Source: an uncultured bacterium (GTDB lineage: Bacteria > Bacillota_I > Bacilli_A > RF39 > UBA660). Taken from it: a stretch of 64,000 bases of DNA. The notes beneath the pieces are model-generated. The model did no database searches and was not told where the DNA came from. It saw only the letters and a list, made by a program, of their open reading frames with translations. Below, in pieces: positions 5,606 through 52,516 of this stretch. The position numbers and the translations under genes are program-made. Every line of letters starts with the position of its first letter. The stretch's first letter is position 1. The DNA lies in the NCBI GenBank assembly GCA_945935525.1, contig CAMERI010000001.1:227548-291547 (forward strand), given 5' to 3'.

Positions 5606-8509
5606 CTAACCCAAATTAATCATATTATACACTATTAATTGATAAGTGTTATCTTTTTTTTCAACTTTAGCATTAATTTTATATACATAATTCTTTTTAA
5701 CTTCACCAATCTTCTTATATGCATCAGGAAAAACAACACCTTCAACACTTCTATATTCATCACTTAACTTAACAAAAGACATCTTATCTCCATTCTTAGT
5801 CTTAATAGTTTTAACACTTTCTACATATAAAACACAAGATATAACTTTATCAAAATATTTAATAAAATCTTTAAGAGTTATTGAGTTACTTCTATCAAAC
5901 TTAGTAACCGGATGAAATGATAAATAAAATCCATAATTAATTATTTCATTATCTATTATTTCCTTATCTGTATAGTCTTCCATATCTTCAAGTATAGGTT
6001 TTTCATCAATAACCATATTTAAGTCTTTACACAAAGTTACATAATTGAGTACTTCATCAAAACTTTTTATCAAACTTTTTTTATTAATATTAAATACATC
6101 AAAAGCTCCACACTCTATTAAAGCAATAACCACTCTTTTATTAACGCTTTTACCATAACACCTAATCATAAAGTCATAAAAATCTTTAAATAATCCTTTA
6201 CATCTTTCATTTTCAATCTCTTCACTTACCGTAGATGCTATACTTTTAATTATAGTAAATGGTATTACTAGCTTTTTATCATTAATAATAAACTCTTTGC
6301 AAGAACTATTTATATTAATTGGTAAAAATTCTATTCCTAGTAACTTGCTTTCATCTATATATTCTTTAATGCTTTCACTACTTTTATTCATATTAAGTAA
6401 ATTTTTCATGAAGTATAAAGTATAATTTATTTTTAAATATGCCATTTGAAATGCCACTACTGAATATACTACTGAGTGTGATTTATTAAATCCATAAGAA
6501 GAGAATTTAATAATTAACTCGTATAACTCTTCTCCAACCTCTCTAGTGTGTCCATGAGAAACAACTCCATTAATAAATTTATCTTTATTTGATGCTATAA
6601 CACTCTCTTTCTTCTTAGACATAGCTCTTCTTATTATATCTGCTTCAGCATAACTATATCCACCAATACTTCTAAGAATCTCTAATACTTGTTCTTGATA
6701 TATTATAATTCCATAAGTACTCTTAAGTATTGGTTCAAGTTCAGGTATTAAGTATGTTACTTTCTCAAGACCTTTTTTTCTTTTAATATAAGTGGGTATC
6801 ATCTCACGAGGACCTGGTCTATATAAAGCTATCGCATCTACTAAAGTGTGAAATGAATCAACCTCTAATTCTTTTAAGAATGCTTTCATACCACTACTTT
6901 CAAATTGAAATACACCAGTAGTATAAGCTTTACTAAATAAATAAAGAGTTCTCTTATCATTTAAATCTATATTATTTATATCTATATTTATTCCACTACT
7001 TCTTATATCATCTATTATATTAGATATTGTATTTAAGTTTTTAATTGATAAAAAGTCCATTTTTAATAAACCAAGACTTTCTATATATTCCATAGAATAA
7101 CCAGTTAAAACAGTATCCCCTACTTTATATAAAGGCATAATACTATCAAGTTCTATATCACTTATAACAACACCAGCTGCATGCATACTGGTATTCTTCT
7201 TTAAGCCACATAACTTATCACATACTTTTACTAAATACATAGCATCTTTATTTCTTCTAACTATATTATTAAATTCAAAATTATTTTTAAGTTCATCAAA
7301 TGTCTTTTCATCTTTTATAGTTCTACAGATATTATCAACTAATATTTGGTTTAATTCCATTACTCTAGATACATCTCTTATAACTTGTTTAGGAAGCAAT
7401 GTATTAAATGATATTATTCTAGCCGTATTCTTGTGTCCATATTTATCACTAACGTATTTAATTACTTCTTCACGTTTCAAACTATCAAAATCTATATCTA
7501 TATCAGGCATAGTAACTCTATCAGGATTTAAGAATCTTTCAAATATTAAGTTATATTTTAATGGGTCTACATTTATAATTCCAAGACTATAGTTTACTAA
7601 AGATGCAGCACCACTTCCCCTTCCAGGACCAACTAAAATATTATTTCTTTTTGCAAATAATACAAAATCATACACTATTAAAAAGTAATCTACAAAGTTC
7701 ATCTTTTCAATAACAGAAAGTTCATACATAAGTCTGTTTTTATATACTTCTGGTACATCACCATTAAGTCTCTTCTCTAATCCCTTTTTAGCAAGAGCAA
7801 ATAAGAACTTTTTTGAGTCTTCTCTATACACTGGTATATGCAACCTAACAGGAGGCATTTCAATATTAATAAGATTTGCAAAATCAAAAGTACTCTTAGT
7901 ATATTCTTTTCCTATATTATTTTTAAAACCACTCTCATATACATTAATCTTTTCTTTAAATACTTTTCCCTCATCTATATATCTAATATATTTAAAATAT
8001 TCTATATCATCAGGTTCAAAATATCTAATCAAATCCATATATACTATATTCTTTGTAAGTTTTAATGCTTCCTCTTTAGTTTTTTCGTTATGAAATTTTA
8101 AATAACAATCTTTAAAATATTTAGATACTACCTCATAATGTCTTATGCTTGTTACTACTATTAAATTAGATATATATTTTTCTACATCTTCAAATGTTAT
8201 AACACCATCTATATTCTTTTTAGAAACTAATTTGAATAACGAAACTAAACCATCATAGTTTCTAGCATATAAAACGACATATGCATCTTCTATAATAAGT
8301 TCACATCCAACTATAGGTTTAATACCACATAAATTACATTTAGTTATAAATTCCATAGTACCAAACATAGATGAATCTGTTATTCCAAGTGCTTTAACAT
8401 CTCTACTTTCAGCATATAAAAGCAAATCATCTATTTTAATTAGACTATTCATTAAATCATATTCAGTTTTAATATTAAGTGGTATATAATTCATAACATT
8501 TCCTTTCAT
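5606..8509 (-). CDS. dnaE: DNA polymerase III alpha subunit (DnaE-type)
   Basis: N-terminal PHP domain, the 'GRGSGAASLVNYSLGI' polymerase core motif, a C-terminal OB fold; 967 aa. Confidence 0.85.
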   Translation of the reverse strand: MKGNVMNYIPLNIKTEYDLMNSLIKIDDLLLYAESRDVKALGITDSSMFGTMEFITKCNLCGIKPIVGCELIIEDAYVVLYARNYDGLVSLFKLVSKKNIDGVITFEDVEKYISNLIVVTSIRHYEVVSKYFKDCYLKFHNEKTKEEALKLTKNIVYMDLIRYFEPDDIEYFKYIRYIDEGKVFKEKINVYESGFKNNIGKEYTKSTFDFANLINIEMPPVRLHIPVYREDSKKFLFALAKKGLEKRLNGDVPEVYKNRLMYELSVIEKMNFVDYFLIVYDFVLFAKRNNILVGPGRGSGAASLVNYSLGIINVDPLKYNLIFERFLNPDRVTMPDIDIDFDSLKREEVIKYVSDKYGHKNTARIISFNTLLPKQVIRDVSRVMELNQILVDNICRTIKDEKTFDELKNNFEFNNIVRRNKDAMYLVKVCDKLCGLKKNTSMHAAGVVISDIELDSIMPLYKVGDTVLTGYSMEYIESLGLLKMDFLSIKNLNTISNIIDDIRSSGINIDINNIDLNDKRTLYLFSKAYTTGVFQFESSGMKAFLKELEVDSFHTLVDAIALYRPGPREMIPTYIKRKKGLEKVTYLIPELEPILKSTYGIIIYQEQVLEILRSIGGYSYAEADIIRRAMSKKKESVIASNKDKFINGVVSHGHTREVGEELYELIIKFSSYGFNKSHSVVYSVVAFQMAYLKINYTLYFMKNLLNMNKSSESIKEYIDESKLLGIEFLPININSSCKEFIINDKKLVIPFTIIKSIASTVSEEIENERCKGLFKDFYDFMIRCYGKSVNKRVVIALIECGAFDVFNINKKSLIKSFDEVLNYVTLCKDLNMVIDEKPILEDMEDYTDKEIIDNEIINYGFYLSFHPVTKFDRSNSITLKDFIKYFDKVISCVLYVESVKTIKTKNGDKMSFVKLSDEYRSVEGVVFPDAYKKIGEVKKNYVYKINAKVEKKDNTYQLIVYNMINLG

Positions 8510-9063
8510 ATATATTCTATCATAATTAAAAGGTTCTTACGAACCTTTTTTCTCATTTGTTAAATTAATTAGTTTAAGTGTAAAATAATATATTTTTTAA
8601 ATTTACTTAAAATTGAATTTTATATATCAAAACATATTTGATAATTAAATTTTTGTATAAAGAAAAATGTAATTATCACCATGAAAAACTATCTCAGAAT
8701 TAAATTTTGCCTATTTGAATTGCTTTTTTATATATGATACTCTACATGCCGAAGTACCTGGGGTTACGTATCGCCAAAGCATGTTTCTCTCTTCAGGGGG
8801 CGCGAACATTTGTTCTAGAATTATGCTAAATTTGCTAAACATAAAGCAAAGAAAATTATTACCTAATTGTAATGCTAAAATCCTTATTTTATCGTATATA
8901 AAGACCTATTTTGTACCCTTCAGTTTGTGTTATTTTTTATTCATAGAATTGTTCGCTTTTTGCTTACTATGATTATTTAGGTACACATAATTAAGTCCTA
9001 AACTCTTGACTTTTATCTATTAATAAGTAACTAATACAATACCTTTTGAAAGGAGGTATTTTG

Positions 9064-9324
9064 ATGAAAGCAAAAGAAATATTAGAACTTATTGCATCAC
9101 CCTGGTGCTATAATCAAGACATTATGAAAATTGCTAATCTATCAGCTTCTACTGCTAGTAAGGTTAAACGAACTATTGAGATGGATTTTAGAAAAAAGAA
9201 TCCTACTAAGTTTATGCCTTCACATTGTGTACCAACAAAAGAAGTAATTAAATACTTTGATCTGGATGTAGAGTTTTTAAAGAGTATAGCTAATATCAAA
9301 ACTAATGAGGATACTAATGAATAA
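9064..9324 (+). CDS. Small HTH protein, possibly Xis/excisionase-like
   Basis: AGGAGG RBS. The pattern 'IMKIANLSASTASKVKRTI...VPTKEVIKYF' resembles the Tn916 Xis-like HTH. It is the first gene of an accessory block. Confidence 0.3.
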   Translation: MKAKEILELIASPWCYNQDIMKIANLSASTASKVKRTIEMDFRKKNPTKFMPSHCVPTKEVIKYFDLDVEFLKSIANIKTNEDTNE

Positions 9325-9643
9325 ATATGTTATTGCACATGTTCATGATGAATTTAAATTATACCTAGCTGATTTCTTTACTAAACCTTTAGGTTCTGGA
9401 GCTATACTAACATGTGATATAGATATCTTAAAAGCTAAAATATATAATTCATATAAAATGGCTAAAAGTGATTTATATTTCATTGGTGATCCTAGTCTTA
9501 GAGTATTACCTATTTGTCCTATATATGATAAAGTTTATGAAACCCATCCAGCTACATCTAGAAAAGATAACAAAACTAAAATATGTCCTTCATGCGGTAC
9601 ACGTGAAGCATTAGAAATATTCCAAACTAAAAGAGCCGATTAA
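9317..9643 (+). CDS. Hypothetical protein with a C-terminal Cys pair (CP...CPSCG, zinc-ribbon-like)
   Basis: ORF with a start context; there is no recognisable family. Confidence 0.3.
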   Translation: MNKYVIAHVHDEFKLYLADFFTKPLGSGAILTCDIDILKAKIYNSYKMAKSDLYFIGDPSLRVLPICPIYDKVYETHPATSRKDNKTKICPSCGTREALEIFQTKRAD

Positions 9644-9656
9644 TTCGACTCTGTTT

Positions 9657-11246
9657 TTATTTTGATACAATTATTGACTTCTTTGATAGTATTGTTGCTT
9701 TATATTTAGTACCAACCTTTTCGACTTTTGATATACAAGCATCCTTCATTTTTACTACTGTGTTGCTCATCTCTATATCTTCATCAAACATTGTTACTTT
9801 TCCTAACCCTAATTCCTCTCCACTTAATACTAGTCCTTCATTAACGGAATCATCAACTATTAAATCAAATGACATTTCGTTATTATATGTTTTTTGTTTC
9901 TTTCTTAAATAGTTGTACACAATATCTATAGAATTCATATTTCTGTAAAAATTCTCATTGTTAACTTTAAATTTATAGCCTAATTGGTTTTCTATAAATA
10001 TAATCTTATTAAAGTAATCTATTGTATCGTTAATGTTCTTAACATCTTTTTTATTATAGATATACTTACCATTACAATATGAATCAATTAAAGGTTTATC
10101 TGTGCCTTCTATTTTTACAATTATTTTTGTTTTTTTATCTTGCCCTAACATATGCCATTTATATAATTGCAATTGTTCTTTTGCATCATCTTTATATTTA
10201 TCCTTAACCAAATATGTATAATGAAATCCTAAATAATTACCTTTTTTAGTTAATTTTAATGTTAAAGAATATGGCTCATCAAATCTAGAGTTAGATACCA
10301 CACTTTCGTTTTCTGTAAATTTTAAAAGATGCATATCAATATTATTAAAACACAATTGTATAAAATCATTTTTCATAATTAATGTGAATTTTCTAACAGG
10401 TAACTCGTCAGATGGTTTTGGTAGTATATATAACATCGACCCTTTTTTGTTTTTTTGAAATGGTGATGGTATAGTTCCAAAATAATCTTTAGCATCTAAC
10501 ATTTTTCCTATAAGTACAGCTTTATTAGTCACATTAGCTTCTCCTGATAACCAATTAATATCTAGCATTCTGTTTCTTTCTTCTTCAGTCATGCCTGAAA
10601 CATCAAATGTTATTTTAGTATTAAAAGGATACTTTTCGTAAGCTTCTTTATTTTTTGCTACTATATGTTCATATGTATCATCATTATGAGAATATTTAAC
10701 TTCATAATAAGGTTTTAATTCATCTGGCAATTTTGATGATTGAATTTTCTCAATTGCTGAAAATGTTTTATTAACAGAATCTTTTATCATCTTATCTGCA
10801 TCTTCTATAGATGGATCAGCGAAATCTACTACTGTCTCTTTAAGTATAGATAACTCATTTTTTGTACTAATAACTTCTTGTTCTATAAATCCTGATGCTT
10901 TGTTAATAATACTAATAAATATATCAGCTATTTCACTTGCCCAATTATTTGAACTTATTATGTGACCTTCCTTAATAAATTCATTTATTAACTCTTGTGA
11001 TCTGTCATCATAATTATCATCTAGGTAATCAATAAAAAAATCTTTATTCATAATAGGTTTTATTTCTTTCGCTAATTTATCAAACTTAGTACCGCCAGTA
11101 CAATATCTACCTATCGAATCATCGTTAATCTCTTCTAAATACTTTATCTTAGTATTAGTAATAGCTTCTGATAATTCTTTTACTATTTCCGAACTACTAC
11201 AATTTAATATCTTTTTAAATATCTTAGAAAATATTGAAAAATCCAT
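9657..11246 (-). CDS. Hypothetical 530-aa cytosolic protein (accessory island)
   Basis: Long ORF. The start MDFSIFSK at 11246 has an AGGAGG RBS, and the upstream in-frame extension has no RBS. There is no family I can name. Confidence 0.5.
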   Translation of the reverse strand: MDFSIFSKIFKKILNCSSSEIVKELSEAITNTKIKYLEEINDDSIGRYCTGGTKFDKLAKEIKPIMNKDFFIDYLDDNYDDRSQELINEFIKEGHIISSNNWASEIADIFISIINKASGFIEQEVISTKNELSILKETVVDFADPSIEDADKMIKDSVNKTFSAIEKIQSSKLPDELKPYYEVKYSHNDDTYEHIVAKNKEAYEKYPFNTKITFDVSGMTEEERNRMLDINWLSGEANVTNKAVLIGKMLDAKDYFGTIPSPFQKNKKGSMLYILPKPSDELPVRKFTLIMKNDFIQLCFNNIDMHLLKFTENESVVSNSRFDEPYSLTLKLTKKGNYLGFHYTYLVKDKYKDDAKEQLQLYKWHMLGQDKKTKIIVKIEGTDKPLIDSYCNGKYIYNKKDVKNINDTIDYFNKIIFIENQLGYKFKVNNENFYRNMNSIDIVYNYLRKKQKTYNNEMSFDLIVDDSVNEGLVLSGEELGLGKVTMFDEDIEMSNTVVKMKDACISKVEKVGTKYKATILSKKSIIVSK

Positions 11247-11426
11247 ATAAAACCTCCTTTCGGACTCCTTCCAGTCCCAACAAATCCTTCCCAATCCTGA
11301 TAAAAGTTTCAATTTGTGTGATAATGAAACCAGTCAAGAGGAAGTGCACTCTTCTTGATAATATATTATAACAGATTTTTCCTATATTCTGGCCAAATAT
11401 GGAGAAAATTTAGGAGGAATTATCAA

Positions 11427-12113
11427 ATGACTAATTTTGAAGATAAAAAACCTAGAAAAGGCTGTAAAGATGTATTTAATGCATATATGGTTAATGAAGC
11501 AATATTTACTGGTGAATTCGATATACCCGTATGTTTAACTGACAAAATTGAAATACCTGAAAGAGTTATTGCTTATGATTTAACTAAATCAAGTACCGAT
11601 TATGAAGCATATGTTCATTTTTATATTGATGACCAAAAGTTTGATGGTCCACAAGGTATATGGAATAATCCAAAGAAAGCTTTAGATCGACTTCGAAAAT
11701 TTAAAGGTGTTATTACACCAGACTTCTCAACTAATATAGATTTTCCTGTATCATTAAAAATATTTAATACATATAAAATGAGAGCATTTGGTTGTTGGCT
11801 TAGATCTAATGGAATTAATGTAATTAATAATGTTAGATGGTCTGAACCTAATTCTTATAATTATTGTTTTGATGGTATACCTAAAAACAGCATTATTTCA
11901 ATTGGTACTATTGGTTGTATAAAAGATAGCTCATATTGGGATTTATATCAAAAAGGTTTAGATGAAATGATTGAAAGATTAGAACCTAAAATAATTCTTG
12001 TATATGGAAGATCACCAGACAAGTTCTTTAAAAAATACAAAGATAAAGGAATAATTATTCATCAATATGAAAGTCAAACAAGTCTAGCATTTAGAAAGAA
12101 GGAATTAGAATGA
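11427..12113 (+). CDS. DUF4417 domain protein
   Basis: Motifs 'KGCKDVFNAYMV...EAYVHFYIDD...IWNNPKK...FKGVITPDFS...IFNTYKMRAFGCWLRSNGINVI...CFDGIPKNSIISIGTIGCIK...ILVYG' match my recollection of the DUF4417 family, which is common in Firmicute mobile elements and phages. RBS TAGGAGG. Confidence 0.5.
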   Translation: MTNFEDKKPRKGCKDVFNAYMVNEAIFTGEFDIPVCLTDKIEIPERVIAYDLTKSSTDYEAYVHFYIDDQKFDGPQGIWNNPKKALDRLRKFKGVITPDFSTNIDFPVSLKIFNTYKMRAFGCWLRSNGINVINNVRWSEPNSYNYCFDGIPKNSIISIGTIGCIKDSSYWDLYQKGLDEMIERLEPKIILVYGRSPDKFFKKYKDKGIIIHQYESQTSLAFRKKELE

Positions 12114-12511
12114 AATCATCATCTGGACTTTATAAAAACACCTCTGGAACTAAAGCACTAAAGAAAAATAATAAAGAAAATATCGTTAAATCAATTAATA
12201 TAAATAAAGTTAACAAAATTCCTGAAAAAGTATCTCAGATAGATCATATATTTAGAGAAGATGAAGGTCACTTAACTTTTAGTGAAAAAAATGTTAAAAT
12301 TATATCGAAGTTGATTAATAACGATAAAAACATCTCACTAGAAAAAGATAAAAACGGAAATACTTGGTATTCCAAAACTAATGAAGATGGTTGCCAAATT
12401 TGGGGAAAAGTTCATAATAGAACTTTAAGTAATGGTGGAATAAATAAAACACCTAGACCATTAGACAAAGATACAGGATATGATAAAAATCCATTTAAAA
12501 AGAAGGAATAA
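12110..12511 (+). CDS. Small basic protein, toxin/nuclease-like (His-rich 'IDHIFREDEGH...WGKVHNRT')
   Basis: 4-bp ATGA overlap with the DUF4417 gene. Size and the His/Gly-His motifs recall HNH/GH-E-like or RNase toxin tips. No family is assigned. Confidence 0.35.
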   Translation: MKSSSGLYKNTSGTKALKKNNKENIVKSININKVNKIPEKVSQIDHIFREDEGHLTFSEKNVKIISKLINNDKNISLEKDKNGNTWYSKTNEDGCQIWGKVHNRTLSNGGINKTPRPLDKDTGYDKNPFKKKE

Positions 12512-12516
12512 TATTT

Positions 12517-12837
12517 ATGAAACTCATAGATTTAAAAAAATATTATTTTCATGATAGTTCTATTTTAGAAATAGTTAAAACTAATGATGTTATTAAATTA
12601 AAAATAGACTTTTGTTTATTTATGCAAGATAACTACATTGAAGGAACTAAAGAAAATTGCATATTAGAACTAACTTTCAATGGAGCATCAACAAATATTG
12701 AAAATATTGAAGTTAATACAATCATAGATACAAAAATAGATGAAAACAAAATTGTATTTAATTTAAACATAGATAAAAATGATGATTATATTCAATTAGA
12801 AATACAAGCCTCATCTGTAGAATTATCTATAAATTAG
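12517..12837 (+). CDS. Small acidic protein (candidate immunity/antitoxin)
   Basis: 106 aa and acidic; it follows 5 bp after the toxin-like gene. Confidence 0.3.
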   Translation: MKLIDLKKYYFHDSSILEIVKTNDVIKLKIDFCLFMQDNYIEGTKENCILELTFNGASTNIENIEVNTIIDTKIDENKIVFNLNIDKNDDYIQLEIQASSVELSIN

Positions 12838-12851
12838 AAAGGAGACTAAAT

Positions 12852-13184
12852 ATGTTAAATACTTATACATCATTTAAATTATTATATTACGCATTAGATT
12901 CAATTTTTGATGAAACTAAAGAAGAAGAATTAGGTGAATTTTGTAGCAATATGAACCCTTTTATATTTGCTGATGAAGGTTCTGCTGACCCTGCTATATA
13001 TTCAAATTACAAAAAACAATTTGAAGAAAGATTCAACAAAGAATGTTCAATATCTGAAGCTTATGAATTTGCAAAAGAATATTTAAATAAAGAAGTTGAT
13101 ATTTATGCAAAACATGCTGTTGATGCATTTAGTAGAGTTTCATTAGAAGATTGGACAAATGCCGCTAATAATATGAACGATTAA
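12852..13184 (+). CDS. Small acidic protein (candidate immunity/antitoxin)
   Basis: 110 aa and acidic, with its own RBS (AGGAGA); last gene of the block. Confidence 0.3.
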   Translation: MLNTYTSFKLLYYALDSIFDETKEEELGEFCSNMNPFIFADEGSADPAIYSNYKKQFEERFNKECSISEAYEFAKEYLNKEVDIYAKHAVDAFSRVSLEDWTNAANNMND

Positions 13185-13489
13185 CATTGAGAACTATATG
13201 GTTTGGTTGATAAAATACGTACACTTCTTCTTGAAGAGTATTAAAACACTTACAATTCCTTTATTTAAAAGGTTTTAAAAGGTATTATTCTACTCTACAT
13301 ACAAATTACATACGAATAATTCTTGGCATCATTCTTAAAATATTACAATTTTTGAGTACCTAAACAAAGGGCTTCAAACCCTTATAATTCCTAGAAAAGT
13401 CACGTTTTTCGCTTACATTATTTGAGCCTAATCTGTACCTAAACTCAACTTTTTCAAATTTCACAAACCCTTATTTTATCGCACAAAAA

Positions 13490-13530
13490 ATGAAGATGCC
13501 TTTGACAGCATCTTCTTCAGGGGGGTTAAT
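13490..13530 (-). terminator. Rho-independent terminator on the minus strand (gaagatgc/gcatcttc hairpin plus T-run)
   Basis: Minus strand reads gaagatgctgtcaaaggcatcttc followed by attttttgtg. Confidence 0.45.
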
Positions 13531-13544
13531 GGAGGCGATGTTAT

Positions 13545-13634
13545 ATGAGTAAAAAAGATTATTTAATAAGTTCTTTACTTGTTATCATTTTCTTATTACT
13601 TTTTATAATATTTTTATTAATTTTCATAAATTAA
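13545..13634 (+). CDS. 29-aa hydrophobic peptide MSKKDYLISSLLVIIFLLLFIIFLLIFIN (candidate type I toxin-like small membrane peptide)
   Basis: GGAGG RBS 8 nt upstream of the ATG; charged N-terminus followed by one TM helix; lies between two hairpin terminators. Confidence 0.3.
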   Translation: MSKKDYLISSLLVIIFLLLFIIFLLIFIN

Positions 13635-13645
13635 TAAAAATACCT

Positions 13646-13682
13646 AACTCACTTTGTAGTTAGGTATTACAACAACATGATA
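13646..13682 (-). terminator. Rho-independent terminator for the pilin-like gene (acctaact/agttaggt hairpin plus T-run on the minus strand)
   Basis: Inverted repeat with an 8-nt loop, followed on the minus strand by ttttattaattta. Confidence 0.55.
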
Positions 13683-13755
13683 CCTGGCCTACAAAGGGTC
13701 AGGTGCTTCACTAAAATTAATTTATCATATTTTAATATATATTGTAAATAATTTA

Positions 13756-14166
13756 TTATTTTTCATTATAAAATTTACATTCATAATTATCTAAATTACC
13801 TTTTTCAATATTATTATCAGATAAATCTTTTATAGTTTGATTATCTTCTAAAGAAACAAGGTACTCTCCATCAGATACTTTAATACTTACTACTTGTCCA
13901 TCATCACTTAAATAAACGCAATATTGCAGTTTACTATCAAAACCATCTAATTTTGTATCATCTTTTGAACTTACTACCTTTGTATTATTACCACTTCTAA
14001 ATCTATTTTCAGCTTCACTATAAACCTTTTTAGTTTCATTAATAACATATTCTTTTTTAGAATTCTTTACAACATTATAAACGTTAGGAAGTGCTATTAT
14101 AACTATAATTGTCAATATGATAATAATTGTTAAAAACTCTATTAAAGTAAAACCAGTTTTATTCAT
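13756..14166 (-). CDS. Prepilin-type N-terminal cleavage/methylation domain protein (type IV pilin/ComGC-like)
   Basis: N-terminus MNKTGFTLIEFLTIIIILTIIVI carries the class III signal G/FTLIE; 136 aa. Confidence 0.65.
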   Translation of the reverse strand: MNKTGFTLIEFLTIIIILTIIVIIALPNVYNVVKNSKKEYVINETKKVYSEAENRFRSGNNTKVVSSKDDTKLDGFDSKLQYCVYLSDDGQVVSIKVSDGEYLVSLEDNQTIKDLSDNNIEKGNLDNYECKFYNEK

Positions 14167-17457: not shown

Positions 17458-19599
17458 TTATTTACTTTTCAATACAAGTTGTTTTGTTTTTAAGAAATCA
17501 TCCTTTTTACAATCTTTTGGTGTAAATCTTTTTTCTTCAAATTCTAACATTTCGATTTCACCTCTTTGATTTACATACATATCTACAAAGTATGCACCCA
17601 TAGTATTTTCAAGTCCTTGCCTTATAGCAAAATTAGTTTTAGCTGTCAAACATGGTATTAAGAATGCTATTACATTTCTATAAGCCATCATATGGCTTTG
17701 ATGAAAGTGTCCACTACCAAGTATGTTAGGTTTACACCCAGGCTCCATTTTATCTATATATTTTTGCATTTTATAAGAAAGGCTTGATGCACATCCACCT
17801 CCAGGATGATACATCTCCTCAATCGTTTTAGGACTTTCTTTAGGACTGAATATTCCTTTATCGTCACCCATAAAATGTAAGTCAGGTCTAAGTCTTTCAA
17901 TAGCAGGTCCCATAAATAATCCACCATTCTTAGCATGAGTTTGATCATGAGTACCAGTTATAAAATATGTATCTACTCCTTCAACCTTAGGATAATAATT
18001 AACTATATATTCAAGTTGTCTTGAAGCCCCTTGTCTAAATAAAGCATATTGATGTTCTGGTCTGTTATGATAATCTCCATCAAGTACATCTCCAAAATGT
18101 AAAACAGTATCAATTCCTTTATCACGAGTTTCCCTATATATTTGATTCACGAGTCCAAGTTGTTGAGTTTCATTACAAAAATGTGTGTCAGATATCCATG
18201 TTTGTTTAATATGAGTTAATTCTTCAATCTGAGGCTTAATAGTTTTACTACTTCTTCCTTTATTTTTCTTTATAACAATCTTACTACCAGATTTATCCAT
18301 TAAATCTATGTCATACCCCTTAAGTTTTAATTCTTCAACAATACCGCCAAACTTTAAAGTACTAATTCCTAATCTAGAACATATTTTGTCTACTTTTTCA
18401 CCACTTTTAATATTAGAATATACTTTATCTCTATAATCTTTAATAACTGGCTTACTTAAATATATACTTTCATTATCAGTAAGATAAAGTGTTTTAAAAT
18501 TCTTATAGTCATCTTTTATAGTTTGATAATATGGAATATACATTTGACTAGTATTTCTTAAATTACCTTTTTTATCTTTTTTTAATGTAATAATCCAACT
18601 ACCAACAGTATTATATACTGGTGTATTAGCATCCTTCATTTCATCTGTAGTACTAACCACAGTAGGAACTTGATAAGAACGCACACCACGTCTTAAAAAA
18701 GAATCACAAGCAGCAAAATGACTAGTAACAAGTATATCAGTTTTATCTTCATTTCTAAGCGCAGCTATCTTTTGTTGAGGTTTATAACTTATAGTATATG
18801 GAACATTACCACTAGAATGTTGTAAATAAATAGATACACTTCCATTTCCTGTGTCACTAATAAACGTAACTTTCTTACGTCTAGGACCTAAATAAATCAT
18901 ATCATCTCTTTTAGAAGCAATTAACTTACCTATATCTACCTTCTCTTTAGTCTTTAAAAAAGATAAATCATGTTCACCAGTAACAAAATATGTGGTTATC
19001 CCTTCAACTCTTGGAAAACAAGAAGCTACATAATCAGCTTGATCTTCATATCCATCCTTATGTAAGGTAGAATTATATATACTTTTACTACCCCTATATA
19101 TTCCTTCAACTACATCACCAGTTAAAAATACATACTTAACACCCATAGCTTTAGCTTTTAAATACATATCATTTAAAATACTTGTTTGCTGATATATACT
19201 GCCAAATCTAGTATCGGATATAAGCATGCACTTAATATTTTCATCATTACTTATAATATCATAAGAAAGATCATTAATTAATTGTTCATGACCAAAATTA
19301 CGTATTAAAGTTACAGTAGTTTTATCTTCATTCTCATAATTAGAAGCAGAAGTATTCATAATGACAATATTATTACCTCTTTTTTTAAGTTCATGAATAA
19401 GTACAAACATATCTTCACGACTTATATTATAAGACCTACATAAATCTTCAAGAATACATTCTTCTGCTAAAGTATCAAATTGTAATTGATCAGCAAGTTC
19501 CTTTAAGTTTGAAGAAGTTACTTCAATTAAACCATTATCCCCTGTTTTAATTATGTCATCTTCACCAAGTATTAATCCATTATTAATTTTCTTAACCAT
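17458..19599 (-). CDS. Tandem calcineurin-like metallophosphoesterase domain protein
   Basis: Two sets of MPP motifs (GDVVEG...GEHD; GDVLDG...GTHD...GHFH); 713 aa. Confidence 0.6.
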   Translation of the reverse strand: MVKKINNGLILGEDDIIKTGDNGLIEVTSSNLKELADQLQFDTLAEECILEDLCRSYNISREDMFVLIHELKKRGNNIVIMNTSASNYENEDKTTVTLIRNFGHEQLINDLSYDIISNDENIKCMLISDTRFGSIYQQTSILNDMYLKAKAMGVKYVFLTGDVVEGIYRGSKSIYNSTLHKDGYEDQADYVASCFPRVEGITTYFVTGEHDLSFLKTKEKVDIGKLIASKRDDMIYLGPRRKKVTFISDTGNGSVSIYLQHSSGNVPYTISYKPQQKIAALRNEDKTDILVTSHFAACDSFLRRGVRSYQVPTVVSTTDEMKDANTPVYNTVGSWIITLKKDKKGNLRNTSQMYIPYYQTIKDDYKNFKTLYLTDNESIYLSKPVIKDYRDKVYSNIKSGEKVDKICSRLGISTLKFGGIVEELKLKGYDIDLMDKSGSKIVIKKNKGRSSKTIKPQIEELTHIKQTWISDTHFCNETQQLGLVNQIYRETRDKGIDTVLHFGDVLDGDYHNRPEHQYALFRQGASRQLEYIVNYYPKVEGVDTYFITGTHDQTHAKNGGLFMGPAIERLRPDLHFMGDDKGIFSPKESPKTIEEMYHPGGGCASSLSYKMQKYIDKMEPGCKPNILGSGHFHQSHMMAYRNVIAFLIPCLTAKTNFAIRQGLENTMGAYFVDMYVNQRGEIEMLEFEEKRFTPKDCKKDDFLKTKQLVLKSK

Positions 19600-50299: not shown

Positions 50300-50899
50300 T
50301 TATTTCTCAATTATAGGTTTAACTATCTCTAAAGTTTTAATATAGTTATATCTTCCAAGTACTCTTTCTTGAGGCATCTCTACTCTTTCAATTATAGGAG
50401 AATAACCTAACTTATGAGACCAAGTACCATCCATATTTTGTCTTATAAAATGAAAATCAAAAGATGCTTTAAAAAAAGCAATTTTATATCCTCCATGATG
50501 AGTATCCCCAAGCATAGTGCATTCATAAGAGTCTATACCAAGCAATTCCAAATCCTTTTGCAAATCATATAAATTAGTATTTAAATCATTTGAACTATAA
50601 AGGTCATCAGTCATAAACCCTAAGTTATGAGTTAAATTATCTATTTCTTTATATTCATATACACTTGCAAATATTTCTGGAGTTATTAATCCCAAAGCAT
50701 ACATATAACAATTAGAATGATTATATTTGCCTTCCTTCTCATCAAAAAGAGGCTTATTAGTTCCAAGTTTAACACACAATTTTAGATATTCTCTATATAA
50801 TTCATACACATCTAAAGATGTTAAATTTCTAATATTTGATATTAATCTAACATAAACAAATACAAGTTCTCTATACGTTTTTAAATATTCTAGCGTCAT
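50300..50899 (-). CDS. Uncharacterised cytosolic protein, paralogue A (conserved Cys/His motifs)
   Basis: Shares 'NCYxYALG', 'GYK..F...F.DFHF.RQN.DG.WSHK.GY.PII' and 'Y..T.EIVKP' with the upstream gene. Confidence 0.5.
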   Translation of the reverse strand: MTLEYLKTYRELVFVYVRLISNIRNLTSLDVYELYREYLKLCVKLGTNKPLFDEKEGKYNHSNCYMYALGLITPEIFASVYEYKEIDNLTHNLGFMTDDLYSSNDLNTNLYDLQKDLELLGIDSYECTMLGDTHHGGYKIAFFKASFDFHFIRQNMDGTWSHKLGYSPIIERVEMPQERVLGRYNYIKTLEIVKPIIEK

Positions 50900-51486
50900 T
50901 TAAGCCTCCTAACAAGAGGTTTAACTATTTCATATGTATGGATAATATCATAATCTGAAACATCAAAAGGATTACATTTAGTTATTATAGGTCTATATCC
51001 TACTTTGTGTGACCAACTTCCATCACTATTTTGTCTTGTAAAATGAAAATCTTTAAAACCTCTATATAATGAAACTTTATATCCATTATGTAAATTTGGC
51101 TTATCTACTTCACTATCAAAACATTTTATTCTTAAGTAACCCATATCAGTTTCAAATCCAAACATTAAATCATTAGGATCTGATACATCAATAATATTGT
51201 TACTTATAAAACCTATATTATGTGTCATCATCTTCTTTTTAAATCTAGCATACACATCACTGAATACATCATGAGTTGTAAATCCTAACGCATAACAATA
51301 ACAATTACCATATCTATATTTATCCTTATCAGCTTTAAATGATGGACTATTAGTACTAACTCTACTTTCTAAAAATAAATATCTTTTATATAATTCTTTA
51401 ACTTCATCTTCACTAATACTAGAAAAATTATCTTTAATGAAATTAATTATATTATCCATCTCTCTCCTAATATCAAATTCATTCAT
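50896..51486 (-). CDS. Uncharacterised cytosolic protein, paralogue B (conserved Cys/His motifs)
   Basis: Tandem paralogue of 50300-50899 with a 4-nt overlap. Confidence 0.5.
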   Translation of the reverse strand: MNEFDIRREMDNIINFIKDNFSSISEDEVKELYKRYLFLESRVSTNSPSFKADKDKYRYGNCYCYALGFTTHDVFSDVYARFKKKMMTHNIGFISNNIIDVSDPNDLMFGFETDMGYLRIKCFDSEVDKPNLHNGYKVSLYRGFKDFHFTRQNSDGSWSHKVGYRPIITKCNPFDVSDYDIIHTYEIVKPLVRRLK

Positions 51487-51913: not shown

Positions 51914-52516
51914 TTAAACACCTTTCAAAATCTTATCAAACATATCTGCACTTTGCTGTTTACTAGCCTCATAAGCATGTGTATATATGTTCATTGTAGT
52001 ATTTGTATTTGAATGTCCTAGTCTTAAACTAACAGCTTTAATATTAACACCATTATCTATTAACAAGCTAGTGCAAGTATGTCTTAATTCATGAAAAGTA
52101 ATTTTAGGTAGATCATATTTTTTAATAATTTGAGAAAGTATATCTGTACAAGTATCTGGATGAATATGAGTACCATATTTTGATGTAAAAATTCTGTTTT
52201 CATTTTTTCACATTCTTCCAAGTTTCTTTTTATAATCATCTTGCCAAGCTTTGTACTCTTTTAATAAATCAATACATACTTGACTGATTATAATCTTTCT
52301 ATTGGAATATGTATTTTTAGCTTTTGATTCATCTACTATTCCATTTACTACTTTTAATCCATTATCAATTAGAATAGTATTATTTTCAAAATCTACATCA
52401 TTCCATTTAAGAGCACATATTTCACTTCTTCTTGCCCCACTATCAATTGCAAGTGTTATTAATGTTCTATATTTAATATTTTCATTTTTCAAGTGATTGT
52501 TCAAATGTGTATCCAT
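51914..52516 (-). pseudogene. int: Tyrosine integrase, N-terminally truncated and frameshifted
   Basis: 102-aa ORF carrying the box I Arg ('SGARRSEICALKW'). The C-terminal catalytic part ('FHELRHTCTSLLIDNGVNIKAVSLRLGHSNTNTTMNIYTHAY') is in a different frame, ending at 51914. No N-terminal arm/core-binding domain is present. Confidence 0.7.

Follow-up and report, generated by a model that had tools for sequence, protein, structure and literature searches.

What kind of element is the block of seven genes that lies next to dnaE on contig CAMERI010000001.1 (assembly GCA_945935525.1) of an uncultured bacterium of the RF39 lineage of Bacilli, and what do its genes do? We analyzed 64,000 nucleotides of this contig (positions 227,548 to 291,547, hereafter the window, to which all coordinates refer unless a locus is named). 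An earlier note, made by a model from the letters alone, had described an accessory cassette at 9046–13184 and interpreted it as a toxin-immunity or anti-phage defence cassette on a remnant of a phage or of an integrative and conjugative element (ICE). Our comparison with other loci (numbered L001 onwards) suggests that the block is best explained as a cis-mobilizable element (CIME) without an integrase, carrying a conserved toxin-immunity cargo module with a likely conflict function, a reading to which we assign a probability of roughly 0.6.

We detected that the mobile unit is larger than the note had proposed, extending from 8801 to 13524 (4,724 bp). All seven open reading frames (ORFs) of the block are real and intact, with starts backed by homolog alignments and independent gene calls, and none of them is a housekeeping gene, as the note had stated. 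An exact 11-bp direct repeat, TCTTCAGGGGG, verified in the sequence, bounds the unit: its left copy, the core of the left attachment site (attL; 8790–8800, + strand), is where the homology with all other cassette copies begins, and its right copy, the attR core (13514–13524, + strand), is the other homology limit. An exact lookup of the 133-aa protein encoded in the block returned 22 contigs, and BLAST of the window against them gave sharp homology limits at 8788/8794 and 13524/13527, with 99.8–100% identity within and different DNA outside. The contigs L016 and L017, reached through the identical neighbouring 136-aa protein, have only 538 bp between dnaE and the gene for that protein. They are precise empty sites, composed of the left flank of the window, a single core and the right flank, with flanks 97.5–99.6% identical to the window. 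Where the two alignments of the window with L016 overlap, they share just the 11-bp core, from which the insertion length of 4,724 bp follows. Identical cores, the 99.8–100% identity across contexts and the precise empty sites in near-identical flanks argue for recent movement as a discrete unit, and the block is very probably a discrete mobile cassette. Its G+C content (0.267) shows no compositional contrast to the flanks (0.266 and 0.269).

The near-identical cassette (99.8–100%) was found in at least three other flanking contexts, in agreement with the accessory and mobile nature proposed in the note, which had also suggested a presence/absence comparison next to dnaE: the empty contigs show that the block is not at this locus in all relatives. 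At the dnaE site, the block is present in the window, L002 and L006, it is followed in L005 by DNA starting with a HerA gene, and L018 has the end of a different cassette. A second insertion site, with a right flank starting TTTTGGTTGAATAC, has a DarT+helicase unit as the left neighbour of the block in L001 and L003, and a Mob_Pre relaxase with a tyrosine integrase in L004, in the order Mob_Pre, integrase, core, block. The same flank of the second site is found in L024, an integrase-bearing element. A scan of the genome collection yielded one locus, in a 'Mollicutes bacterium' metagenome-assembled genome (MAG; L019), where the block adjoins a gene for a PHP+ATPase protein.

The surroundings of the block resemble it in their limits. 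The DarT+helicase unit of L003 (1325–6482, 5.2 kb) has the hairpin and CAGGGGG cores at both limits and encodes DarT, a 1213-aa DpdF/PsyrT-like helicase and a 141-aa protein, as does the left part of L001. The limits of the unit suggest a second cassette belonging to the recombination system of the block. A further boundary was detected in L020, 2.7 kb past its integrase, and units sharing one core appear to form arrays. Among the neighbours, PADLOC profiles matched HerA (E 3.6e-174), the DpdF/PsyrT-like helicase (E 2e-81) and DarT (E 3e-11), and the Ppl match of the L019 neighbour is weak (E 2.6e-7, C-terminal 100 residues only). The right-hand neighbours are a 793-aa protein with PHP and ABC-type ATPase parts in L019 (535–2916) and a HerA ATPase in L005 (5201–6424); in both loci the DNA past the core starts AAATCT(T/A)AATACCAGTTCG, resembling the post-core start in L020 (AAATTAATTAACCAGTCCG).

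The non-coding arms of the unit link it to integrase-bearing elements. Motif searches in the left arm (8801–9063, + strand; repeat family D10, sequences verified) detected the arm-type motif AAATCCTTATTTTATCG at 8878–8894, GTACCTAAAT at 8975–8984, which is an inverted copy of the right-arm GTACCTAAAC, and CCTAAACTCTTGACTTTT at 8997–9014. Motif and hairpin searches in the right arm (13185–13513, + strand) detected GTACCTAAAC twice (13356 and 13435), AACCCTTAT twice (13377 and 13466), CCTAAACTCAACTTTT at 13438–13453 and a hairpin at 13492–13515. The arm motif thus occurs three times in the block, at 8878 on the left and at 13377 and 13466 on the right. CCTAAACTCTTGACTTTT and CCTAAACTCAACTTTT are the imperfect flanking repeat that the note had reported at about 8988 and 13434. 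This repeat exists and is not a chance feature (2 matches, with 0 expected from shuffled sequence), but it is an internal arm repeat and not the junction. The integrase-bearing elements end about 85 bp past the integrase stop with a repeat pair, an AA(A/C)CCTTAT-type motif, a hairpin and CAGGGGG, and the same order (repeat pair, AACCCTTAT, hairpin, CAGGGGG) was observed at the right end of the block and at the end of the DarT cassette.

The block itself encodes no integrase or relaxase: Pfam detected none, and tblastn queries with the integrases of L004 and L011 and the relaxase of L004 gave no match inside it; the L004-type integrase has a weak Arm-DNA-binding match. The first gene (9064–9324, + strand) encodes an 86-aa helix-turn-helix-like protein that has no Pfam match and is homologous (blastp, 36% identity, E 1e-17) to the 80/81-aa backbone proteins of the Mob_Pre+integrase elements L020 and L024. 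Their genes sit there between an HTH_3 regulator and the AAA_25/Mob/Int genes. The link of this Xis-like gene to mobile elements, made in the note, is therefore supported, and the 86-aa protein is a candidate excision or regulatory factor, judging from this homology. The second gene (9317–9643, + strand) encodes a 108-aa protein with a C-terminal Zn-ribbon-like segment, which matches phrog_2945 (E 5e-10, residues 70–108) and, weakly, the TFIIS Zn-ribbon (E 0.066), and is 93.5% identical in L011. At the DNA level, the left arm and the 86-aa and 108-aa genes are 92–95% identical in L011 and the cargo there only about 70%; such a mosaic of conserved backbone and variable cargo is expected of a mobile element. 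The definition of CIMEs and their tandem accretion are described in PMC5704250. The block corresponds to it in its attL/attR direct repeats, reduced to a single copy in the empty site, in its lack of integration and transfer genes, and in its related att sites and backbone together with the tandem Mob_Pre+Int unit of L004, an autonomous element.

The cargo includes a DUF4417 gene (11427–12113, + strand; 228 aa). The family was correctly named in the note: the protein matches PF14386 with E 5e-55 (186.2 bits against a cut-off of 28.9, profile positions 4–182 of 183), as well as phrog_8680 (E 2e-57) and the 'nuclease' phrog_940 (E 6e-49). Apart from these matches and the PHROG match of the 108-aa protein, nothing in the block is assigned by Pfam, NCBIfam, PHROGs or PADLOC. 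Its association with mobile elements, also mentioned in the note, is seen in 495 phage records at about 33–36% identity, mainly from Mycobacterium and Streptococcus phages, where DUF4417 is often fused to ParB_N (10.1101/2025.10.10.680097). The DUF4417 family has no sequence relative in PDB. The DUF4417 gene ends within the start of the 133-aa gene, in a 4-bp overlap (ATGA), and we propose DUF4417 as an enzyme-like partner coupled to a toxin. In every full-length relative with readable context, a 52x-aa gene faces a DUF4417 gene overlapping a small ORF, which is followed by one or two proteins of about 100–112 aa. This layout is kept at 87% identity to the 529-aa protein of the window (L015), at 53–56% (L011–L014), at 33% (L025), at 26% (L031) and at 23% (L026). 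The L031 region resembles a conjugative element in its CHAP and ParA-type genes. In Streptococcus phage A25 (L029, 2408–3471), the DUF4417 gene (A25_22) and a basic, His-rich ORF of 127 aa (A25_23) overlap by 4 bp; the ORF lies just upstream of the small terminase gene, and no immunity gene follows it.

The last three genes are quite likely a toxin with its immunity. They encode a basic 133-aa protein (12110–12511, + strand; net charge +11), an acidic 106-aa protein (12517–12837, + strand; −9) and an acidic 110-aa protein (12852–13184, + strand; −12), in agreement with the note on the translational coupling, the basic nature of the first and the size and acidity of the other two. The slot after DUF4417 holds three unrelated proteins among the compared loci: type A of 133/134 aa (window, L015, L025), type B of 115 aa (L011, L013) and a 166-aa protein with EndoU_bacteria (PF14436), an RNase domain of polymorphic toxins (57.9 bits, above the Pfam threshold, E 1.8e-15; L026, L031). 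Types A and B have an N-terminal SG(H/L)(F/Y)xxTSG motif in common. The downstream partners co-vary with the slot over seven loci, A occurring with the acidic protein Y, B with X, and EndoU with Z and W. The variation of the slot and the acidic partner of each type support the toxin-immunity reading, which is now stronger than in the note. The order in the window is A, X, Y. Y, the 110-aa protein, accompanies type A in the window, L015 and L025; in L025 it is 61% identical and the sole gene after the toxin homolog, X being absent there. The 106-aa protein X is 62% identical to the type B partner in L011 and L013. These relationships make the 110-aa protein the probable cognate immunity partner of the 133-aa protein; the 106-aa protein is probably an orphan that would protect against another type of toxin.

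The 133-aa protein belongs to a narrow family with invariant Q43, H46, R49 and H54 and has no match in Pfam, NCBIfam, PDB or, by tblastn, in phages. The note had pointed to 'HIFREDEGH...VHNRT' motifs; H46 and H54 of the former are invariant, and the His of 'VHNRT' is not. The protein would act as a small intracellular toxin, probably a nuclease/RNase in view of the invariant His, Arg and Gln residues. We also considered it as a divergent EndoU and rejected this reading, which hhalign does not support. Natural alleles are often N-terminally truncated to 89 or 73 aa (many without the first 44 residues), and other alleles are deletion fusions of 130, 124 and 116 aa, with the first ~90 residues joined to residues 25–106 of the 106-aa protein (truncated or fused alleles were seen in P0012, P0017, P0020, P0022, P0227, P0230, P0273 and P0277). 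The 110-aa protein is far more widely intact than the 133-aa protein. These data suggest recurrent inactivation of the 133-aa gene, a pattern expected of a costly toxin.

The 529-aa protein (9657–11246, − strand) is divergent from this operon. An alternative 551-aa form with a TTG start has no support from homologs and gene calls. The family is small: a word search gave 9 clusters, and an exhaustive HMMER search 67 representatives. AlphaFold2 with a 37-sequence alignment gave a confident model with a mean predicted local distance difference test score (pLDDT) of 88.4, compared with 38 from an alignment of 7 close homologs. The model has a helical N-domain (1–118), a disordered linker (121–146) and a large alpha/beta C-terminal region. 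Foldseek of the model against PDB gave nothing significant (best E 0.18), and the PDB sequence search with the family gave no match; the modelled fold may be new. In the viral structure set, only the N-domain gave matches, which are uncharacterised siphovirus proteins (E 8.5e-5), and phage records gave just two tblastn matches for the 529-aa protein, at E 0.5. The N-domain (~120 aa) is found by itself, again N-terminal, in many other proteins, including NACHT+SNaCT14 proteins, NACHT proteins and one protein ending in CTD11 of ABC-3C (Lamassu), and one homolog of the C-domain has SMEK_N in its place. The effector module of bacterial NACHT defence proteins sits at their N-terminus (10.1101/2022.07.19.500537).

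Only N319 and some prolines are invariant across the 529-aa family, which speaks against enzymatic activity. Between the 529-aa gene and the DUF4417 operon lies a divergent control region (11247–11426) that carries GGACT/AGTCC/AATCC repeats and a hairpin (11333–11359) and is conserved across L015, L011, L013 and L025. The divergent orientation and this conserved, repeat-bearing region fit a regulator or sensor of the toxin operon; the 529-aa protein would act in this role rather than as a catalyst. A 426-aa homolog of the C-terminal domain only, without DUF4417, was observed on a small RepA_N/Mob_Pre plasmid-like contig (L027, L028), with a ThsB-like TIR protein, an 8xMP protein and an HTH_26 gene as neighbours.

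We suggest the following scenario. The cassette, which has no recombinase or relaxase of its own and keeps att sites, arm-type repeats and the 86-aa backbone gene, would be integrated by tyrosine-recombinase site-specific recombination at the 11-bp core. The integrase of a Mob_Pre (MobV)+integrase element would move it in trans, and its position in tandem with such an element in L004 would also allow co-transfer. The cargo would pair the 529-aa gene with a divergent operon in which DUF4417 is followed by a small toxin and by one or two acidic immunity proteins, with the 110-aa protein neutralising the 133-aa toxin and the 106-aa protein as orphan immunity. The role would most likely be a conflict function, potentially anti-phage or anti-element abortive defence. 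We put a conflict or defence role of the whole module at slightly less than even odds. A broader proposal is that the four-gene module is an undescribed mobile conflict system, in which a sensor with the N-module of NACHT and Lamassu-type proteins controls a DUF4417-coupled polymorphic toxin, on an integron-like tyrosine-integrase platform that shuffles hairpin+CAGGGGG-bounded defence cassettes; we regard it as tentative and rather unlikely.

Several observations weigh against the CIME with toxin-immunity cargo. Some of the alternative contexts are short metagenome contigs, possibly mis-joined at the repeat. An intact integrase is absent from the 64-kb window, with only a broken one near 52 kb, and a helper integrase in this genome is hypothetical. 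The circular (attP) junction (...GCATCTTCTTCAGGGGGCGCGAACATTTG...) was not found in a search that covered JGI contigs only, the cassette-bearing samples being ENA, Logan and NCBI records. The 133-, 106- and 110-aa proteins match no toxin or immunity family; a known toxin domain is seen only at the equivalent position in L026 and L031 (EndoU_bacteria), and hhalign of the 133-aa family against the EndoU protein showed no relation (probability 0.3). The toxins have no trafficking or secretion Pfam domain, and none of the compared neighbourhoods has secretion genes. The coupling in phage A25, in which an immunity gene is lacking, indicates that the small partner of DUF4417 may not always be a toxin. 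PADLOC-DB v2, a check that the note had proposed, detected no known defence system in the block (only a spurious pAgo match of 13.6 bits), and the proteins of the L011 variant were negative too; an anti-phage role, suggested in the note, is a reading from the neighbours and from shared domains. Inter-bacterial toxin systems are a more usual setting for orphan immunity genes than abortive-infection systems. The broken tyrosine-recombinase gene (about 51917–52516, − strand) has a 102-aa ORF left, with 27–30% identity to the L004/L011 integrases by tblastn, and may be a relic of another integrative element; two paralogous genes for 196- and 199-aa proteins lie just downstream of it (50300–51486).

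The toxin and its antidote might serve only as an addiction pair, stabilising the cassette and its arrays by post-segregational killing with no anti-phage role. The module is always on mobile elements (a CIME or an integrative mobilizable element (IME), the ICE-like region with CHAP and ParA, and the RepA_N/Mob_Pre plasmid-like contig for the C-domain family), a maintenance function would benefit a cassette without an integrase, and a toxin-antitoxin system maintaining a mobilizable island is known (cited in PMC5704250). A simple toxin-antitoxin pair, however, needs neither a conserved 529-aa partner nor DUF4417, the frequent natural truncation of the toxin indicates that the cassette persists without it, and the N-domain common to NACHT and Lamassu-type proteins points to sensing rather than to plain addiction, which makes addiction unlikely. 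Inter-bacterial competition, with polymorphic toxins delivered to neighbouring cells, acidic proteins shielding kin and orphan immunity directed against the toxins of neighbours, is in line with the polymorphic slot, the known polymorphic-toxin domain EndoU_bacteria in relatives, the co-varying toxin and immunity types, the apparent orphan immunity gene of the window and the N-terminal motif common to types A and B. We consider it improbable, since the module proteins have no signal peptide, LXG/WXG, Rhs, trafficking domain or membrane segment (read by eye, not computed), the toxins have just 115–166 aa and secretion-system genes are adjacent in no locus compared.

A decayed prophage or ICE fragment with no present function or mobility, close to the remnant proposed in the note, would explain the missing integrase and transfer genes and the matches of DUF4417 and the Zn-ribbon segment to phage families. 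It is very improbable in view of the identical att cores, the identity across contexts and the precise empty sites, which mark an intact att-bounded unit that has moved recently; besides, the seven ORFs are intact, the four-gene module is kept down to 23% identity, and viral contigs contain no relatives. Specific forms of a phage origin were ruled out. For a phage remnant, structural, lysis and packaging genes are missing, the PHROGs matches are confined to DUF4417 and the Zn-ribbon segment, and the viral contig scans were negative; for a phage satellite, there is no integrase, primase, packaging gene or viral contig match. An integron gene cassette was likewise ruled out, since the boundaries are TCTTCAGGGGG with arm repeats and the recombinase is a phage-type integrase with the weak Arm-DNA-binding match.

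The CIME with toxin-immunity cargo has known counterparts in its parts. The CIMEs found with ICEs and IMEs (e.g., those related to ICESt1 of Streptococcus thermophilus; PMC5704250) likewise have attL/attR flanks, lack integration and transfer genes, stand in tandem with a related integrase element at the same att site and form arrays by successive site-specific integrations. The block differs from them in its presumed helper family, an IME with MobV (Mob_Pre) and a tyrosine integrase from MAGs of uncultured low-GC Bacilli/'Mollicutes', in its target, an intergenic leader rather than the 3' end of a gene for a tRNA or a protein, and in the hairpin directly before the core at each right end of a unit examined, with a conserved arm motif upstream in most. 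The MobV+tyrosine-integrase IMEs with defence cargo (L020, L021, L024) share with it the CAGGGGG core, AACCCTTAT, the hairpin, the 80–86-aa backbone gene and a conflict cargo, but the block lacks their HTH_3 regulator, AAA_25 protein, relaxase and integrase. Integron arrays with defence genes are also made of discrete cassettes, defence systems included, with a common recombination site. They differ in using IntI, in place of an arm-binding phage-type integrase on a mobilizable element, and in attC structures and a GTTRRRY core, none of which is seen here; the cassettes of the type described here contain several genes each, with their own promoters and in both orientations.

The cargo resembles polymorphic toxin-immunity cassettes (Zhang/Aravind classification; EndoU_bacteria PF14436) in the variable slot followed by cognate acidic proteins, in the apparent orphan immunity and in the EndoU of relatives. 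It differs in that its 115–166-aa toxins are free-standing, without trafficking domains, that they are translationally coupled to DUF4417 and that a divergent 52x-aa gene accompanies them. The likeness to bNACHT and Lamassu/ABC-3C is limited to the N-domain of the 529-aa protein, which has no NTPase domain, ABC/SMC partner or known effector. The phage DUF4417 and ParB_N-DUF4417 genes (Streptococcus phages A25 and Javan394, many mycobacteriophages) share the domain at 33–36% identity and, in A25, the 4-bp overlap with a basic His-rich ORF; they lie at the replication/packaging junction upstream of the terminase, without immunity genes or a 52x-aa partner, and are often fused to ParB_N.

The element type, CIME/IME accretion, is known, and the cargo architecture and the presence of several defence units with one boundary architecture are new variations on it. 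What had been hypothetical genes in a list can now be read as one element, whose ends and empty site are known and for which there is a candidate helper integrase. In uncultured low-GC gut Bacilli, the DarT+helicase unit, the HerA-starting unit and elements carrying restriction-modification (RM)/GmrSD genes have a common recombination-site architecture and stand in tandem, which is a simple route for swapping defence genes. The module ties DUF4417, a widespread phage domain, to interchangeable small toxins including EndoU. For this domain, which hundreds of phages encode, that amounts to a concrete functional hypothesis, and the conflict-system reading, if true, would be its first functional context. 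The confidently predicted structure of the 529-aa protein has no solved counterpart.

The target of the insertion lies between dnaE and the divIVA/sepF operon. At the empty site, the att core is located in the leader of a small ORF encoding a very hydrophobic 29-aa peptide, MSKKDYLISSLLVIIFLLLFIIFLLIFIN (13545–13634, + strand, by translation), which has an intact leader in L016 and L017. The ORF has a strong ribosome-binding site (RBS), GGAGG at 13531–13535, and the core ends 6 nt upstream of it. A 6-bp indel in L017 is in-frame, consistent with coding. In the predicted fold of the intact leader, AUCGCC pairs with GGCGAU across the RBS and the core is in an inner hairpin (z = −1.87, modest), suggesting that the uninterrupted leader may sequester the RBS. 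The insertion parts the 29-aa ORF from the upstream half of the leader (from about 8740) and probably also from its promoter. This ORF, the target of the integration, looks like a gene for a type-I-toxin-like peptide or for a small membrane peptide. No tRNA gene was found at the insertion site, and Rfam gave no match in 8400–14000; the G+C-rich stretches at both ends were accordingly rejected as known RNAs and are att/leader sequence. Outside the cassette, a 713-aa protein (17458–19599, − strand) appears by its sequence to have two metallophosphoesterase-like halves; only faint Metallophos Pfam matches are recorded, for the identical gene in L016, and the gene is kept beside the recO-like and glyS genes.

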